Below are positions 5,989 through 31,499 of a stretch of DNA of 40,410 nt, one piece after another. The notes beneath the pieces were generated by a model. That model saw only the letters and a program-made list of their open reading frames with translations. It ran no database searches and had not been told where the DNA came from. The position numbers were made by a program, and so were the translations under genes. Source of the DNA: Candidatus Saccharimonadota bacterium (GTDB taxonomy: Bacteria; Patescibacteriota; Saccharimonadia; Saccharimonadales; JAGQMS01); the NCBI GenBank assembly GCA_043719125.1, contig JAYSUL010000024.1:1-40410 (forward strand). Direction: 5' to 3'. How positions within the stretch are numbered: position 1 is the first letter of the stretch; each line of letters begins with the position of its first letter.

Positions 5989-7656
5989 CTACATTTTTTC
6001 GGGAGCTTGTATGCCCAGGATAGAAAGTCCATCCCCAAGTGTCTTTGCGTATTCACTCACCAAAGTAAGCCGGACCGCCTCTCTCGGATCGCCCACTACA
6101 AGATTGTTCTCATAGAATTTATTAAACTCCTGCGCCAGTTCATAGAGGTAGGTACATATAGTGTGCGCGGCGTACTCGGTCGTTGCCTGAAATAGTATTA
6201 CCTGGTACTCGGCGAGCTTCCTTACAAGCTGTCTCTCGCCAAGTTCGAGCTGCACCACCTGTGCAGGCTCTACGGCTGATTTGCCCAAGATACTTTTTGC
6301 CCTAACGAGTGCGTATTGCAGGTATGGGCCACTATTACCATGGAGGCTAACGGATCCCTCCGGATCAAATGCAATATCACCACCCAGTCTATGCTTGAGG
6401 AATTCGTACTTCACCGCTCCAAGATAAATCTGCTCATCCCGCTCGGGATCGCCTGAGTCACCCACCGCTTCCCTCACGGCGCATAGCACATCCATGGCAG
6501 TCGTTACATTGCCTGTTCGTGAAGACATTTTAGTCCCATCACCAAATCGAATTAGTCCGTTCGTCAGATGCGTCATCTTTGTGCGAATTCCCGGAAGTAT
6601 ATGGTCGGCTGCCTGCCACACAACTTTCATATATTCTGTCTGTTCTTTTCCGGTGATCAAAATTCGATGATCAAAGGGAAATTCTTCCATTTCTATCATG
6701 ATGAGGCCCAGATCTTTAGCCTCATAGGTAGGGAGTCCTTCCCTAGTTATGAAAACTCTCGTATGCAGGCCATCCTTTTCGCCCTCGTATACGACAGCAT
6801 CTTGAGATTTTGCGAACACAGAGCCGACATGAGCTTCAACTTCATGTCTACCACGAGCTTCGGTTGAGCTTTCCGGATAATACTTTTCGAACCCAGTTAC
6901 CTTTAGTTCACGGTATAGCCGTTCAAAATAGTCTCGACACCAGTCTCGACACGTAAAATATATCTGGGCAAACGGTGAAGTCGTATCTCCCGTTGCGTGC
7001 ATTGCATATATACGTTTGTTAACTTCTAGAATCTCAGCGCTAACTGCGTCGTCATCATTCGTATCTGCCTTTGCGCCATCAACGTAACGTTCGGCAATAA
7101 ATTTTGTACGCTCATCAGTAAGTATATCGTTGAGTTTTTCCGGAAACTCACCACCAATATTTTTAATTATTCCCCATAGGGCACGCGCCGCGCTCAAGCC
7201 TACATCAGCGCCAAAGTTGGTTCTGTGCACTATCGCCCCGCTTCTCTCGACCATTCTAGCAACCACGTCACCATAGATCGTTTGGTATAAGTGCCCAGCG
7301 TGCAGTTCTTTGAAATAATTTGGGCAAGAATACTCAATAACGTATCTCTTTCCCGCAAAAACATCGACGTCTCGCCTCGATGCAGCGTCCCAAAGGTCAC
7401 CATCCGAAGCCCAAAGATTGATAAACCCAGGTCCAGCAACCTCTGCTTTTACACCACCTGTATTAAGTCTATCGACCAAAGTCTGAGCAATTTCTCTCGG
7501 ATTTTTCTGTAGCTTTCCAGCGATTTGCATCGCGACATTCGTTGAGTAGTCGCCGAACTTTGTCTCGGGGATAGTCAGCTCAATATCTGCCTCAATCTCA
7601 AAAAGCTCTCTGACGAGAGACTTAATTTGATCAATAGTTTTTTGCTTTAACTCCAT
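5989..7656 (-). CDS. argS: Arginine--tRNA ligase
   Basis: 555 aa with a class I HIGH-type motif (HAGHL), a KMSKS-like KMSSR, and the typical ArgRS C-terminal anticodon-binding domain ending in M. Confidence 0.95.
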   Translation of the reverse strand: MELKQKTIDQIKSLVRELFEIEADIELTIPETKFGDYSTNVAMQIAGKLQKNPREIAQTLVDRLNTGGVKAEVAGPGFINLWASDGDLWDAASRRDVDVFAGKRYVIEYSCPNYFKELHAGHLYQTIYGDVVARMVERSGAIVHRTNFGADVGLSAARALWGIIKNIGGEFPEKLNDILTDERTKFIAERYVDGAKADTNDDDAVSAEILEVNKRIYAMHATGDTTSPFAQIYFTCRDWCRDYFERLYRELKVTGFEKYYPESSTEARGRHEVEAHVGSVFAKSQDAVVYEGEKDGLHTRVFITREGLPTYEAKDLGLIMIEMEEFPFDHRILITGKEQTEYMKVVWQAADHILPGIRTKMTHLTNGLIRFGDGTKMSSRTGNVTTAMDVLCAVREAVGDSGDPERDEQIYLGAVKYEFLKHRLGGDIAFDPEGSVSLHGNSGPYLQYALVRAKSILGKSAVEPAQVVQLELGERQLVRKLAEYQVILFQATTEYAAHTICTYLYELAQEFNKFYENNLVVGDPREAVRLTLVSEYAKTLGDGLSILGIQAPEKM

Positions 7657-7844
7657 TTGTAATCAGTATACCCGACTTACGTATAACCTCGAAGAAGTCA
7701 GGGTTATCTAGAGAGGATGATATGCACCCATTATCTAACTGAGGTGATGCTATGGCATCATTGATGGAAGAAACGGGTGTAGATCGCCTATCTGATAAGT
7801 ATGGCTCTACAGGGATTTGCGTAAGTCGGGTAAACAGAGGTAAC
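7657..7844 (-). promoter_or_regulatory. Structured 188-nt spacer/leader upstream of argS, closed by a 13-bp helix
   Basis: Perfect inverted repeat tacccgacttacg (7669-7681) / cgtaagtcgggta (7820-7832) encloses about 138 nt containing further hairpins. No SD is visible before the argS ATG. Confidence 0.4.
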
Positions 7845-8513
7845 TTAATACTTCGATAGGTATCTTGGTCGAGCAACGGCTTGCTCTATAACTAACTTGT
7901 GCCGCTCGAGCAGACTCGCGTACTCATCCTTGGTTTTGTTCATACTGCTATACACCAGGAATGGCTCGAGTACATCAAAGCCGCAGAACGCTAACGTTCC
8001 ATGGTGAAGCGGATGCAAAACTTGCTTGAGGGTAGCCTTATGCTTACCGAGAGGTTGATAGTACTCTTCAGGGCCACCAGCTACAGCGACAACCATTGCC
8101 TTTTTGCCACGGAACATCCCGTTTTCATAAATTTTTCCGGCGTCCCATGCTATCCCCATAGCCAGGACCCTATCAAACCAGCCTTTGAGAATTGCTGGCT
8201 CAGAAAACCACCACACCGGGAAGTAAAACATCACCAAATCAGCTGCCTGCAGGCGCTGTATCTCACTGACTACATCTGGCGCGAAACCCCAGTTATTATC
8301 AGTCGCGTGCTTTTGCTCAAGCATGTAGTTAAAGTGTTTCCCTGTAAGCGTCGAGAAGTCATACTTGTTCGCAGTCGGAGTGAATCCATTTGCGTAAAGA
8401 TCAGTTTCGATTACTTCATGCTCTAACGCCACAAGCGTGCTGATTGCCACATTCTTTAGAGATGCGACGAGAGATGCGGGCTCGTGATGAGCATATACCA
8501 CCAATATATTCAT
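7845..8513 (-). CDS. NAD(P)H dehydrogenase (quinone), flavodoxin-like fold
   Basis: 222 aa. MNILVVYAHHEP...DLY...FYFPVWWFS...LKGWFDRV matches the Flavodoxin_2 / NQO1-like pattern. Confidence 0.85.
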   Translation of the reverse strand: MNILVVYAHHEPASLVASLKNVAISTLVALEHEVIETDLYANGFTPTANKYDFSTLTGKHFNYMLEQKHATDNNWGFAPDVVSEIQRLQAADLVMFYFPVWWFSEPAILKGWFDRVLAMGIAWDAGKIYENGMFRGKKAMVVAVAGGPEEYYQPLGKHKATLKQVLHPLHHGTLAFCGFDVLEPFLVYSSMNKTKDEYASLLERHKLVIEQAVARPRYLSKY

Positions 8514-27863: not shown

Positions 27864-29156
27864 ATGAACCCTAAGAAACTAGTCCGTAAAGTTGCTCCAA
27901 AGAAGGCTATCTCTCTTGCCGAGGAAACATACCGCAAAAGTAGACTAGGAGTTGTGCACCTCAGCTACCGCCTACCTGCACGCAAGCTACGCATTATCGC
28001 TATTACTGGCACTAACGGCAAAACAAGCACCTGCAACTTCCTCAACGATACGCTGATATCAGCCGGCTACCGTACGGCTATGTTTACCACTGCAGTTATC
28101 GAGATGGACGGTGAGAGAGTGCTCAACACCAATCACACAACTGTGCCAAAAACAAAGGATCTCTTTAGATTCCTCAAACTTGCAAAGATCAAAAAAGTAG
28201 ACTTCGTAATCCTCGAGGTTACATCTCACGCACTACACCAGCACAAAATGTGGGGCATACCAATCGAGATATCCGTCATGACTAACATCAGCCAGGATCA
28301 CCTAGACTATCATGGCACTATGCAGAAGTATGCTGACGCAAAAGGGCGACTATTTAGTAAGTATATGAAGCCAACTTGGTGCGTCCTCAACACAGATGAT
28401 GAATGGTATGATTTCTTTCGCTCAAAGTCATCAGGACGACTATTTACCTATGGCAAAAAAGAGGGCGCAAACCTCCGTATCAGTTCACTCAAGACATCTG
28501 CAGAGGGTGTGGCGCTCAGACTAGATCACGCAGATCACTCTATAATCGCCACATCAGGAGTTATAGGCGAGTTTAACGGCTACAATTTGTCTGCAGTGGC
28601 ATCTGTCTGCGAAATACTCGGTATCAGTCCAGACAACATCAGGAAAGGACTCGAAACAGTCCGGTCTGTACCGGGTAGGATGGAAATGATCAGGAGCAGT
28701 CACGGCTTTACTGCTGTTGTTGACTACGCACATGCTCCTGATGCACTTGAAAAAGCACTCCTTGCACTACGCTCTACTACAGACAAAAAAGTATCAGTGG
28801 TATTTGGGGCAACAGGCGATAGAGACAAGACAAAGCGACCGATAATGGGGCAGGTAGCAGCAAAGTTTGCAGACAAAATATACCTTACCGACGACGAGAC
28901 ATACACCGAAGACGGCGACATGATCCGAAAGGCAGTATTTGAGGGTATCGTCAAAGCCAAAGGTAGAAGCAAAACGATTGAGATAGCAGACCGTAGAGAT
29001 GCTATCAAAAAGGCACTGGAGGAGGCGGGCAAAGGGGACATGATACTCGTAGCTGGCATTGGGCACCAGAATTACCGCGCCATGAACAATGGAAATATTC
29101 CATGGCAAGAGTCTGAAATTACAAAAGAACTTTTAAAAGAGCTCGGATTACAGTAA
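27864..29156 (+). CDS. murE: Mur ligase, MurE-like (UDP-MurNAc-tripeptide synthetase), short form
   Basis: 430 aa with ITGTNGKTST P-loop, DYAHAPDALEK and GATGDRDKTKRP. It lacks the usual N-terminal domain, and the DNPR motif is replaced by DDETYTED. Confidence 0.8.
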   Translation: MNPKKLVRKVAPKKAISLAEETYRKSRLGVVHLSYRLPARKLRIIAITGTNGKTSTCNFLNDTLISAGYRTAMFTTAVIEMDGERVLNTNHTTVPKTKDLFRFLKLAKIKKVDFVILEVTSHALHQHKMWGIPIEISVMTNISQDHLDYHGTMQKYADAKGRLFSKYMKPTWCVLNTDDEWYDFFRSKSSGRLFTYGKKEGANLRISSLKTSAEGVALRLDHADHSIIATSGVIGEFNGYNLSAVASVCEILGISPDNIRKGLETVRSVPGRMEMIRSSHGFTAVVDYAHAPDALEKALLALRSTTDKKVSVVFGATGDRDKTKRPIMGQVAAKFADKIYLTDDETYTEDGDMIRKAVFEGIVKAKGRSKTIEIADRRDAIKKALEEAGKGDMILVAGIGHQNYRAMNNGNIPWQESEITKELLKELGLQ

Positions 29157-29207
29157 ACGCTATTGATAGCGTTTAAAGATAGGAGACTTGCGCTATATAT
29201 AAAATTG

Positions 29208-29237
29208 TTGACAAGTATGTTTTACGAAGAGTATAGT
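29208..29237 (+). promoter_or_regulatory. Near-consensus sigma70-type promoter with no downstream protein gene
   Basis: TTGACA (29208-29213), 18 nt, TATAGT (29232-29237). Confidence 0.65.
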
Positions 29238-29296
29238 TTGTCTCAATCTCTTTTGTGAGAGATAGTGGTTGATCATATTGATCCCACGAACCTTAA

Positions 29297-29909
29297 CAGC
29301 ACGAACAAATGATACGTTTAGTCAGCATCCAGCCCACAACAGAAGCTTCTGGGTTGAATGCTGACTAAACAGATGAAGTAACTACAGCTTTGTAAAGACC
29401 CGCTCAAGGTCGTAGCGCTTAGCCCAGACCCAATAGGGAAAAGGTAGCAACGCAACTAAACGAAGAAAGACTTCATCTATGGTAGCCGACGGCAGTCGAT
29501 AAGTGCATTCGGAGAATCCCAAGCAAGCATCTCCCCCTGTGGGGGAGGGAGAGGAATTCTGAAATGACCCATCCAACGCTGACCGACCGTGCGCAGGTTG
29601 CGCATCTGGTCGACACCGTCCATCACCCGAGTGTCGAAGACATCACCGGCATCGACGGGACCTGACCGAGGCACCCGCACCAAACTACCGTTGTGTCTGA
29701 AGGGGCGCTGACGGAAAGTACGATTCCCTTCGAGAACTACCCAGGTACAGGGTCGGACTTCGTGTCCGACCCTGTACCCCCAAAAGATCTACGTCCCCGG
29801 ACGACTCTGAGAAAGACCTCCTCCTTAGAATTGCCTGAGTGGGCGAGGCATGCCGGGTGTGGAGCCGATTGCTCCACACCCGGCAGCGGGATTTCATTTG
29901 TTCGTGCTG
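29297..29909. repeat. 16-bp perfect inverted repeat flanking a 581-nt high-GC core
   Basis: cagcacgaacaaatga (29297-29312) is the exact reverse complement of tcatttgttcgtgctg (29894-29909). Confidence 0.9.
29564..29665 (+). CDS. Possible 33-aa sORF inside the candidate RNA (weak)
   Basis: ATG lies 9 nt after gggagggagagg. Translation MTHPTLTDRAQVAHLVDTVHHPSVEDITGIDGT, with G/C-rich third codon positions. The SD can pair with the upstream ctccccc (29531-29537). Confidence 0.2.
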   Translation: MTHPTLTDRAQVAHLVDTVHHPSVEDITGIDGT

Positions 29910-29926
29910 AACAACCAGCATTATTT

Positions 29927-29956
29927 AAAAACCACCAGTAGCTCGGTGGTTTTTTC
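29927..29956. terminator. Bidirectional intrinsic terminator
   Basis: aaaaaccacc-agtagctc-ggtggtttttt, with an A run and a T run on the two sides. Confidence 0.7.
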
Positions 29957-29972
29957 GTATTCTTAGATGTTA

Positions 29973-30047
29973 CCTGCCAGAGATTTTAGGCTCTGGCAGG
30001 GAGGGGGAGGAAAGCCGACAACGCTGGCGGCTTTCCTCACTCCCTCC
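29973..30047 (-). terminator. Two GC-rich hairpins downstream of the 154-aa gene
   Basis: cctgccagag-attttagg-ctctggcagg (perfect 10 bp, 29973-30000), and gaggaaagccg / cggctttcctc (11 bp, 30007-30038) with outer G/C-rich extensions. Confidence 0.55.
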
Positions 30048-30059
30048 TGTCCGCCCGTG

Positions 30060-30524
30060 TTAGGCGATCTGCTTGCCCATTGGCCGTCTCTTGATGAGAG
30101 ACTCGCGACGCATCCTCCTTTGACGATTGAAGTCACTGGTCGGGTCGCTGAGCTCAGACATGACACCGTTACAGGCACTACTTGCGCTCTGTGGCTTGAA
30201 TGAGCTCTTGATCTCAGCCAATACACGTCCCGCAGCGTGCGAAACATGACTCAGGTCATACCTGGAGGAGCTCGGACCCTGGACGACAAGTCTTTGATGC
30301 TTGCTGTCGAACACCAACTTGACGTTGGGGTTGGCTCTCTTGGCCGCCTGGACCAAGAGAATAAACGATGACTCCCATTCTACGTAATTACTCACGGAAA
30401 TCGGGATACACCATCTCATTCCTTGCTTGAACGCTTCACTGAACCGAATCTCAGCCTTACCCAGCTGACACTGTATCGCGCCAACCATGACTGGCTGAGT
30501 TTCGAGCGGTGGCTTACGTTTCAT
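30060..30524 (-). CDS. Orphan hypothetical protein with a basic C-terminal tail
   Basis: ATG at 30524 (GTG at 30530 also possible), preceded by taggtg. 154 aa, MKRKPPLETQPVMVGAIQ...RRMRRESLIKRRPMGKQIA. No family recognised. Confidence 0.55.
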   Translation of the reverse strand: MKRKPPLETQPVMVGAIQCQLGKAEIRFSEAFKQGMRWCIPISVSNYVEWESSFILLVQAAKRANPNVKLVFDSKHQRLVVQGPSSSRYDLSHVSHAAGRVLAEIKSSFKPQSASSACNGVMSELSDPTSDFNRQRRMRRESLIKRRPMGKQIA

Positions 30525-30539
30525 CGACACCTACTTCAC

Positions 30540-30575
30540 TATAGTTGGACAGGAATATTATAATAACATAATTTG
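30540..30575 (-). promoter_or_regulatory. AT-rich candidate promoter for the 154-aa gene
   Basis: On the minus strand: TATAAT (plus-strand 30557-30562) with only a weak -35 (TTATTT at 17 nt). A second TATAGT lies closer to the start. Confidence 0.35.
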
Positions 30576-30576
30576 C

Positions 30577-30605
30577 AATAAATAAAACCCCTCAAGCTTG
30601 GGGTT
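30577..30605 (-). terminator. Intrinsic terminator after the 93-aa gene
   Basis: On the minus strand: aacccc-aagcttga-ggggtt followed by ttatttatt. Confidence 0.65.
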
Positions 30606-30756
30606 CTGTGTGTGATAAATAATCTTAGTCGTTGCCGGAGGCTCTGTCGATGTTTCCATCAACGAGCTTCTCCGGCGTATTGTGACCCCCTTGGGGGAGG
30701 TTGGTGCGGCCTCACGGGACCTGCTTAACCTCCTCCCCCTTAGCGATCTCCGCCCG

Positions 30757-31038
30757 CTACCGAGCGATCGGCTTCAGGCCGAAGCCGAACGTAGCCAGTA
30801 CCTCCCGCAGGAAGCTCTCGATCATCCCAATGGACGCGCGCTTGTAATCGATCACGATGTTCGTTCCCCTTCGAGTGACGGCGTAGACCCACGACTGGGC
30901 CCCGATCGTCTCCCGGAAAGCCTCGATATCTGCAATCTTGCTTCCTGCCCCCAACAGGGTAGCCGTGAAGTAGTTCTCGCTTCGCGCGAGCTTCACGGCA
31001 ACTTCGGGTGTGGCATTCGGTACGGATTTCTTCCCCAC
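30757..31038 (-). CDS. Orphan 93-aa protein, high-GC coding sequence
   Basis: GTG at 31038 lies 5 nt after AAGGAGG (31044-31050); an upstream ATG at 31059 has no SD. 37/60 G+C at 30781-30840, with strong G/C preference at third codon positions in this frame only. No family recognised. Confidence 0.6.
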   Translation of the reverse strand: MGKKSVPNATPEVAVKLARSENYFTATLLGAGSKIADIEAFRETIGAQSWVYAVTRRGTNIVIDYKRASIGMIESFLREVLATFGFGLKPIAR

Positions 31039-31095
31039 TGGAACCTCCTTGTTATGCATGATCAGCGGGTGCTGACCAAGTTTCCAGTAAAATTG

Positions 31096-31123
31096 ATTAT
31101 ACAACCTTTTTATATATAGTCAA
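31096..31123 (-). promoter_or_regulatory. Consensus sigma70-type promoter for the 93-aa gene
   Basis: On the minus strand: TTGACT (31118-31123), 16 nt, TATAAT (31096-31101). It sits back-to-back with the groES promoter. Confidence 0.65.
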
Positions 31124-31127
31124 TATA

Positions 31128-31157
31128 TTGACCATGGGGGCATTTGTATCTTATGAT
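31128..31157 (+). promoter_or_regulatory. groES-groEL promoter
   Basis: TTGACC (31128-31133), 18 nt, TATGAT (31152-31157), immediately upstream of the CIRCE element. Confidence 0.7.
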
Positions 31158-31167
31158 AAGTCCACAA

Positions 31168-31194
31168 TTAGCACTCTAGGCATCAAAGTGCTAA
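31168..31194 (+). promoter_or_regulatory. CIRCE operator (HrcA binding site)
   Basis: TTAGCACTC-N9-AAGTGCTAA, one mismatch from the consensus TTAGCACTC-N9-GAGTGCTAA. Confidence 0.9.
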
Positions 31195-31232
31195 ACTTTA
31201 TAGAGAACATAATTCAGGAGGTGTAAACGAAC

Positions 31233-31499
31233 ATGAGTTCACCAATCAGCCCTCTCGGGGACAATATCGTAGCCCAAAATGAAGAGGCAAGTAGCAAGAC
31301 CGCAAGCGGGCTATACCTACCAAGCGGTGCAACCGAAAAGCCAAAGACAGCAAAGGTTGTAGCAGTAGGCAAGCTTGTTAAAGAGCTCAAAGTAGGCGAC
31401 CGCATCGTCTATAAGAGCTACTCTACGACTGACGTAAAAGTCGGCAAAGAAGAATTTATCATAGTAAAAGAAGAAGACGTCCTCGCGACAGTCAAATAA
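31233..31499 (+). CDS. groES: Co-chaperonin GroES
   Basis: 88 aa: PLGDNIVAQNEEASSKTASGLYLP...KVVAVG...GDRIVYKSY. Confidence 0.95.
   Translation: MSSPISPLGDNIVAQNEEASSKTASGLYLPSGATEKPKTAKVVAVGKLVKELKVGDRIVYKSYSTTDVKVGKEEFIIVKEEDVLATVK

Follow-up and report, generated by a model that had tools for sequence, protein, structure and literature searches.

In a 40,410-base stretch of a Candidatus Saccharibacteria contig (hereafter the window, meaning the whole of the DNA analyzed), the spacer between murE and groES carries a perfect 16-nt inverted repeat. We consider its two arms to be, most probably, the two strands of P1, the closing helix of an independently transcribed, highly structured noncoding RNA (ncRNA) encoded on the plus strand of this spacer in a sub-clade of Candidatus Saccharibacteria and belonging to no described RNA family. 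The interior of the element is built of many hairpins with GNRA or UNCG caps, and we infer that the RNA is both expressed and functional. Among named genomes, its MurE finds its closest matches exclusively in Candidatus Saccharibacteria metagenome-assembled genomes, and the DNA of the window occurs in sediment metagenome runs, X1 and X2 among them.

The repeat sits in a 2.1-kb spacer, with murE at 27864-29156 and groES at 31233-31499. A repeat search returned the left arm (29297-29312, CAGCACGAACAAATGA) and the right arm (29894-29909, TCATTTGTTCGTGCTG) as 16 nt each, 100% complementary and 581 nt apart, which together with our reading of the sequence bears out an earlier note on this DNA (the original prediction) that had described exact reverse complements at this distance. 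No further match to the arm 16-mer, allowing up to two mismatches, exists within the window. When the window was simulated 200 times by a first-order Markov model, 16-mer inverted pairs up to 1 kb apart arose at a mean of 0.015 per window, with 3 of the 200 simulations having any. Chance is therefore excluded as the origin of the repeat, and the value agrees in order of magnitude with the original prediction's estimate of about 1e-4 per 0.7-kb span. That prediction had also set the composition of the arms against that of the DNA between them, and this holds, the arms being AT-rich and the DNA between them having a GC content of 0.55-0.60 versus 0.464 for the whole window. The GC-rich stretch, however, runs past the 3′ arm to about 31100, across two minus-strand genes. 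Of the resulting island, about 1.9 kb long, the repeat thus encloses only the first third.

To place the repeat in a comparative frame, we followed MurE homologues from a protein collection to syntenic contigs; two further relatives, L023 and L037, were reached via a protein resembling that of the neighboring gene orf93. A homologous unit lies after murE or beside groES in at least eight distinct relatives, and at the same place in 9 of 9 sub-clade loci. The MurE proteins of its carriers are 88% (L024), 76% (L025), 75% (L026), 70% (L027), 76% (L030-L033), 75% (L034 and L035) and 68% (L036) identical to that of the window. The unit is absent from L028 and L029 (MurE identity 69% and 67%, respectively) and from the distant Saccharibacteria L001-L004, whose genome contigs were searched with MurE and show at most 51% MurE identity. 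While L024 holds the whole unit at 90% identity to the window, the other relatives are alignable only over some 100-200 nt at the start and 55-330 nt at the end. Every one of them has the promoter, the leader hairpins H1 and H2, the invariant junction CACGAAC(C/A)TTAA-CAGCAC, the closing helix, a long hairpin directly inside each P1 strand, the conserved tail and a CCACC/GGTGG terminator, with arm-to-arm lengths of 557-877 nt and a GC content of 0.54-0.60. The L036 contig ends within the unit, and L023 and L037 contribute 3′ ends only; the evidence on P1 comes from six distinct sequences, namely, the window and five distinct full-length versions.

The arms are embedded in what appears to be a complete transcription unit. 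A consensus scan placed a sigma-70-type promoter (TTGACA, 18 nt, TATAGT; 11 of 12 matches) at 29208-29237 on the plus strand, ending about 60 nt before the left arm, and transcription would start at about 29244-29246. The −35 element TTGACA is invariant in L024-L027, L030, L034 and L036, each of which has a −10-like hexamer (TATAGT, TATATT, TACAAT or TATTGT) at the same place. RNAalifold on the window and L024 predicts leader hairpin H1 (29246-29263, AUCUCUU/AGAGAU), whose sequence is also present in L025-L027, L030 and L034. It is followed by H2 (29265-29287), recovered in a consensus fold of eight sequences, in which the outer GUGG/CCAC is nearly invariant and the inner 4-5 bp co-vary (GAUCA/UGAUC, GAGCA/UGCUC, GAGCA/UGUUC and GAGC/GCUC); one inner pair is GC in four sequences, UA in two and GU in one. 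Directly 5′ of P1 comes the mostly single-stranded motif CACGAAC(C/A)TTAA (29285-29296), found exactly or with one C/A change in the window, L024-L027 and L030-L035, and diverged in L036 (CGCGCCTTAAAAGCAC).

The left arm, that is, the 5′ strand of P1, is followed after 3 nt by the long hairpin P2 (29316-29370; 24 bp, 88% complementary), present in all members. The fast-evolving, GC-rich multihairpin interior (29371-29850) contains a perfect 15-bp hairpin at 29744-29778, and another perfect 15-bp hairpin, the last one (29851-29885), ends 8 nt ahead of the 3′ strand of P1. Beyond the right arm, the conserved 3′ tail AACAACCAGCAUUAUUU (29910-29926), of which the core ACCAG(C/A)AUUAU is kept in relatives, leads into an intrinsic terminator predicted by a terminator scan (AAAAACCACC...GGTGGTTTTTT, with an A-run 5′ and a T-run 3′). 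The terminator was called at 29927-29954, 18 nt after the right arm, within a segment reaching to 29959; its CCACC/GGTGG stem is conserved in all members. Judging from the A-run and T-run, it can serve transcripts of either strand, among them those of the convergent minus-strand genes. The predicted plus-strand transcript, starting near 29245 and terminated at 29955, would be about 710 nt long. Both its promoter and its terminator, which are consensus-based predictions, are conserved in L024-L027, L030, L034 and L036.

P1 is supported by covariation. In a gap-free alignment of the six distinct sequences, 89.6% of cells are paired, as opposed to 22-40% with slid partners. Ten of the 16 pairs have changed on both sides with pairing kept, and the covariation score was reached by none of 500 shuffles. 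The length and register of the helix vary (11-17 bp) round an invariant CAGCAC/GTGCUG core: the window and L024 have CAGCACGAACAAATGA, L025 has CAGCACGAGTATAGAT with one G.U, L030 and L034 have the L025 sequence but with one A.C, L026 has CAGCACTGAGC, and in L027 (CCTTAACAGCACTGAGT) the helix is extended outward. The 3′ arm of L023 carries an A-to-C change (TCCTTTG...). The aligned sequences thus show that compensatory changes maintain P1. Among the three readings offered by the original prediction was a P1-type helix that closes a large RNA domain; the retention of P1 in every relative with the unit, its compensated pairs and the conserved promoter-to-terminator frame all support it.

Covariation extends to the hairpins inside the arms. 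In P2, 16 of 23 predicted pairs are doubly changed yet paired (8 sequences). L030 and L034 differ from each other by compensatory changes at 27 of 207 predicted pairs, including 9 in P2. The last hairpin of L023 differs from that of the window by two compensatory swaps, one from A-U to G-C and one from G-C to A-U, and a 15-18 bp G+C-rich hairpin occupies the same position in L025-L027, L030, L034 and L037, being held by three G.U pairs in L037.

Folding points in the same direction. The 613-nt arm-to-arm stretch folds with P1 as its closing helix, and its folding z-score versus shuffles is −11.8 on the plus strand and −8.2 on the minus strand; relatives scored −13.5, −10.0 and −14.1. GNRA or UNCG sequences account for 12 of the 39 predicted tetraloops on the plus strand, where about 5% would be expected, and for 3 of 33 on the minus strand. 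In the long hairpins, 33 G.U pairs compare with 16 A.C. Furthermore, the RNA unit is 90.1% identical between the window and L024, compared to 78.9% for murE, 83.6% for valS and 82.3% for groEL, and purifying selection on noncoding sequence is therefore indicated. The open reading frames (ORFs) inside the bracketed DNA carry no codon-position GC signal (for the neighboring orf93, the GC content at third codon positions, GC3, is 0.75), and no small ORF is common to the divergent members. A conserved small ORF as a feature of the family was thus rejected, there being no counterpart beyond L024.

Known families do not account for the element. At the gathering threshold, Rfam 15 matched only three tRNAs in the window; at E values up to 10, the region 29100-31300 gave only hairpin-like microRNA or small RNA noise far below threshold, and at E up to 1, nothing relevant was found in L024-L027. 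The window RNA matches none of OLE, ROOL, GOLLD, HEARO, raiA, RNase P, tmRNA, 6S, SRP, group I or II introns, and rRNA, and ARAGORN found no tmRNA or tRNA in the region. For the ORFs inside or beside the element, Pfam, NCBIfam, PHROGs and PADLOC returned no match. A blastn search of the element against phage and plasmid collections, a scan of viral contigs with both neighbor proteins and the 3′-arm pattern, and a scan of JGI metagenomes with the 3′-arm DNA pattern and orf93 peptides were likewise negative. Five viral contigs do match the invariant 18-mer; they reached only 12-17 bits with a model of the 5′ module and have nothing else in common, and we regard them as chance matches. Two further candidates were considered. 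The interior motif AAGATCT, which follows a strong hairpin in six members and is absent from L036 and L037, was not used as evidence (by our own estimate, about three 6-mers would be common to four independent lineages by chance), and the leader CACGAA might make a kissing contact with UUCGUG-type loops, although UUCG-like loops are common here anyway.

Several observations weigh against a structured ncRNA. The sequence is present in no RNA sequencing run, and its promoter, terminator and ends are predictions. The minus strand attains the lower absolute folding energy (−287.8 versus −265.4 kcal/mol), although its z-score is weaker, and many of the hairpins are long and perfect, as would also fit structures at the DNA level. 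The covariation derives from about six independent lineages, with helices partly derived from the same sequences. Moreover, the interior is unalignable between sub-clades, and no 9-mer is common to three of four divergent members. Most described large RNAs keep a conserved core, and part of this interior could therefore be tolerated filler. Lastly, the neighbor genes are GC-rich too, so RNA structure alone does not explain the composition of the region.

Compared with L030 and L034, the L025 unit shows 80% identity at its 5′ end, falling to 65-68% at its 3′ end, and compared with L026, it is 70% identical over the first 200 nt. Length differences among L025, L030 and L034 are concentrated in the middle, which measures about 180 nt in L025 versus about 437 nt in L030. 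The island itself is mosaic. Over 29857-31232, the part with the minus-strand genes orf156 and orf93, the window and L023 are 92-96% identical, whereas identity drops to 76-78% in the adjacent groES and groEL. In L024, an RNA resembling that of the window is found together with a small protein of the L025 type, which is 57% identical to that of L025 and 27% identical to that of the window. By these comparisons, the murE-groES spacer behaves as a laterally exchanged GC-rich mosaic island. Since L029 has orf93-like genes without the RNA and L024 is mixed, the RNA and the small-protein genes are neighbors, not strictly linked.

The same spacer of L029 holds other GC-rich DNA (6294-7950; GC 0.52-0.64) with 126-aa and 93-aa minus-strand ORFs, the latter resembling the orf93 family; a 337-aa gene called there looks like a wrong-strand artifact. 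Two metagenome contigs reveal additional variants. A 151-nt contig in run X3 differs at 8 positions from 29660-29798 (about 94% alike), indicating that a further variant of the interior exists, and a 466-nt contig in run X5 matches 29121-29253 before continuing into unrelated sequence (AATGAGGCCAGGATCGCTTAAC...), a leader-region variant in the L023-type population. Public unitig assemblies of the source runs break exactly at the perfect 15-bp hairpin 29744-29778, where contigs stop at 29737 and resume at 29748, and the L023 contig ends inside the last hairpin. Such assembly-fragmenting hairpins may be the reason why the RNA escaped notice.

The mosaic nature of the spacer lends some weight to a different explanation, in which a conserved frame of promoter, leader, arms and terminator takes up unrelated foreign GC-rich cargo, the arms being remains of an old hairpin or recombination site. 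This would account for members whose ends are conserved while interiors of different sub-clades, at 557-877 nt, cannot be aligned, for the exchange signs seen in the window/L023 island versus groES and groEL and in the L024 combination, and for the different GC-rich insert of L029 at this spot. Even so, we judge it unlikely. Hairpin-only sites occur in no relative, and the hairpins that adjoin the two arms on the inside are homologous in position and show covariation. Divergence within sub-clades is graded, with length change only in the middle, as fits expansion and contraction of one RNA, and all interiors combine z-scores of −10 to −14 with hairpins capped by tetraloops on one strand, features that random cargo would not have in common. 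The original prediction had entertained an ancestral hairpin whose loop received foreign DNA and proposed looking for a murE-groES spacer with the hairpin alone; no such spacer was found, and L028 and L029 are without the entire unit. What survives of that idea is that the middle and the neighbor genes turn over or exchange fast.

Structure at the DNA level, i.e., a cruciform or an array of single-strand hairpins serving as a recombination, replication or uptake site, is suggested by the long perfect 15-bp stems at 29744-29778 and 29851-29885 and by both strands folding well. We give this little credence: the promoter and terminator are conserved on one strand, GNRA/UNCG enrichment is seen on the plus strand only, and G.U outnumber A.C pairs two to one. 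In addition, G.U pairs, which on the other strand would be C.A mismatches, hold together P1 in L025 and the last hairpin in L037.

It is similarly improbable that the transcript is an mRNA, or a dual-function RNA, for a small peptide. The candidate is a 33-codon ORF at 29564-29665 (MTHPTLTDRAQVAHLVDTVHHPSVEDITGIDGT) behind a GGAGG-rich stretch (GGAGGGAGAGG); both the ORF and the purine-rich stretch are intact in L024, and codon-by-codon reading found about half of some ten substitutions there to be synonymous. Some of these substitutions, however, also keep predicted pairs via one-sided changes of the G.U type, the ORF makes up <15% of the transcript, and it has no equivalent in L025, L026, L027, L030 or L034.

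Least credible of all is a nonautonomous transposon (a miniature inverted-repeat transposable element, MITE) whose terminal inverted repeats are recognized by a transposase in trans, which the original prediction had listed among its readings and for which a perfect 16-bp inverted repeat round ∼0.6 kb of compositionally distinct DNA, within an island showing signs of lateral exchange, might be taken to speak. The repeat pair, further copies of which had been proposed as a check, is a single copy both in the window and in the source metagenome contigs (one contig set in two runs, at the ∼6-8x depth of the flanks); in the relatives, the unit always lies at the same locus; of the 16 pairs, the outer 6 are invariant and the other 10 co-vary, which is the signature of a helix and not of a protein-binding terminal repeat; conservation reaches beyond the arms into promoter, leader and terminator; gene calls and family scans revealed no transposase nearby; and there is no clean empty site, L028 and L029 holding other DNA there. 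The original prediction had itself seen no convincing target-site duplication, and rightly so: none is present, and the flanks ...CCTTAA and AACAACC... belong to the conserved leader and tail of the unit in relatives.

If the 16-mers are indeed the strands of P1 in a structured ncRNA, this helix would join the 5′ and 3′ parts, clamp the multihairpin domain and protect the ends, and a role in processing is possible as well. Recognition or processing probably takes place at the invariant CACGAACMUUAA-CAGCAC junction and at the 3′ tail. In our model, the P1 strands, P2 and the last hairpin would be paired, with CACGAACCUUAA and the 3′ tail accessible or covered by protein. We envisage the RNA as a stable scaffold or a protein-binding RNA and not as a regulator of a neighboring gene. 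Its middle part would be selected for stable structure, not for sequence, and would change via compensatory substitution, hairpin gain and loss, and probably exchange between lineages.

Potential protein partners may be sought in the minus-strand gene pair of the island. orf93 (30757-31038; GC3 0.75) has a GTG start after GGAGG, orf156 lies at 30060-30530 (GC3 0.63), and a TTGACT-16-TATAAT promoter of this region is found at 31123-31096, likewise on the minus strand. A profile search of 5.8 billion sequences assigned 11 proteins to the orf93 family, and a search of 1.84 billion cluster representatives gave 9 matches at E up to 0.001. An orf93-like gene adjoins groES in all RNA-bearing relatives, and also in the RNA-less L029. 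With the 11-sequence input, the AlphaFold model of orf93 reached a predicted local distance difference test (pLDDT) score of 87, whereas a two-sequence input was unreliable (pLDDT 57). The best fold matches of the model are aIF1, eIF1 and YciH, of the SUI1 fold, at template modeling (TM) scores of 0.5-0.58 and an E value of 1.4e-3; as a weak lead, this SUI1-like predicted fold hints at RNA or ribosome binding.

Three other elements in the spacer deserve mention. Past the stop of orf93, the minus-strand stretch 30584-30756 is structured and comprises a long stem (GGGGGAGGAGGTT...AACCTCCCCC), another hairpin and, at 30607-30584, a terminator. This stretch is 95.6% identical to L023, alignable to L024 and L026 and more conserved than the ORFs, and it could be either a 3′ untranslated region element or a further small RNA. 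Two G+C-rich hairpins occupy 29973-30057, between the shared terminator and the stop of orf156; the inner stem GAGGAAAGCCG/CGGCTTTCCTC becomes GAGAGATGGCC/GGCCATCTCTC in L025, a compensatory change, and its pairing is partly lost in L023. Finally, a CIRCE-type operator (TTAGCACTC-N9-AAGTGCTAA) at 31168-31194, upstream of groES and conserved in L023, corresponds to the HrcA site expected there.

Apart from rRNA, RNase P and introns, large structured ncRNAs of at least 500 nt are rare in bacteria, and every new class has given rise to research of its own. To our knowledge, and in line with our literature search, none specific to the ultrasmall, host-dependent bacteria of the candidate phyla radiation (CPR) has been described. 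The present candidate is unusually well delimited by its promoter, terminator, closing helix, co-varying hairpins and fixed locus. It is more conserved than the surrounding protein genes between close relatives, yet its middle is remodeled or replaced between sub-clades, and a conserved frame with a fast-evolving, hyperstable interior is not typical of known ornate RNAs. We tentatively speculate, with the odds rather against us, that it founds a class of large structured RNAs confined to a lineage of CPR (Saccharibacteria) bacteria, in which a conserved frame of leader, P1, P2, last hairpin and tail holds a hypervariable, hyperstable hairpin domain, the RNA traveling in a laterally exchanged GC-rich island with small beta-beta-alpha-beta-beta-alpha proteins of a weakly eIF1/SUI1/YciH-like fold. 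If so, RNA and small proteins might form a ribonucleoprotein, for instance, one binding ribosomes or acting on the actinobacterial host or on phages, and the variable domain might be under diversifying selection. More generally, where a genome of medium GC content contains GC-rich DNA bracketed by a long-range perfect inverted repeat, this can point to an RNA gene and not to a mobile element.

Among known systems, MITEs share with the window RNA a perfect, terminal-looking inverted repeat round a short noncoding stretch and are set apart by its single copy, fixed locus, co-varying arms, own promoter and terminator, and lack of a target-site duplication. Retron msr-msd RNAs, with their a1/a2 inverted repeats, resemble it in having inverted repeats at the ends of a structured noncoding transcript with long hairpins. 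Unlike in retrons, there is no adjoining reverse transcriptase gene here, the neighbors being murE, two ORFs without family match and groES/groEL, and the window RNA is several times longer. In geometry alone, the RNase III processing stems of rRNA operons are comparable: there too, a long-range helix flanks stable G+C-rich RNA, with conserved single-stranded sequences adjoining. However, the RNA enclosed here has no match to small or large subunit rRNA, and P1 spans only 11-17 bp.

6S RNA and Ms1, as well as the sponge RNAs of the Csr/Rsm type, act by protein binding. Like these, the window RNA has its own promoter and terminator, a structure conserved over sequence and ends paired in a closing stem. 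It is, however, three to five times longer, and the Rfam models of these families do not match it. There is no central bubble as in 6S RNA. The comparison with Csr/Rsm sponges covered the tetraloops, which are mostly generic stabilizing GNRA/UNCG loops and among which no recurrent motif such as GGA was seen.

A further comparison is with the Rfam families OLE, ROOL and GOLLD, large "ornate" ncRNAs of bacteria whose functions are poorly understood or not known and for which cryo-electron microscopy structures are available (PMC12286853). In contrast with these, the window RNA has no covariance-model match even at E up to 10, its interior is almost without conserved sequence between sub-clades, its host is a CPR bacterium, and its predicted fold is largely a string of local hairpins within one closing helix; nor did we see a link to prophages or tRNAs such as is known for ROOL and GOLLD. 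What it shares with all three is a stand-alone noncoding gene of 0.6-1 kb, many helices, a G+C content above that of the genome, a narrow distribution and covariation. And much as OLE has its Oap proteins, the window RNA lies near small genes that could encode its partners.
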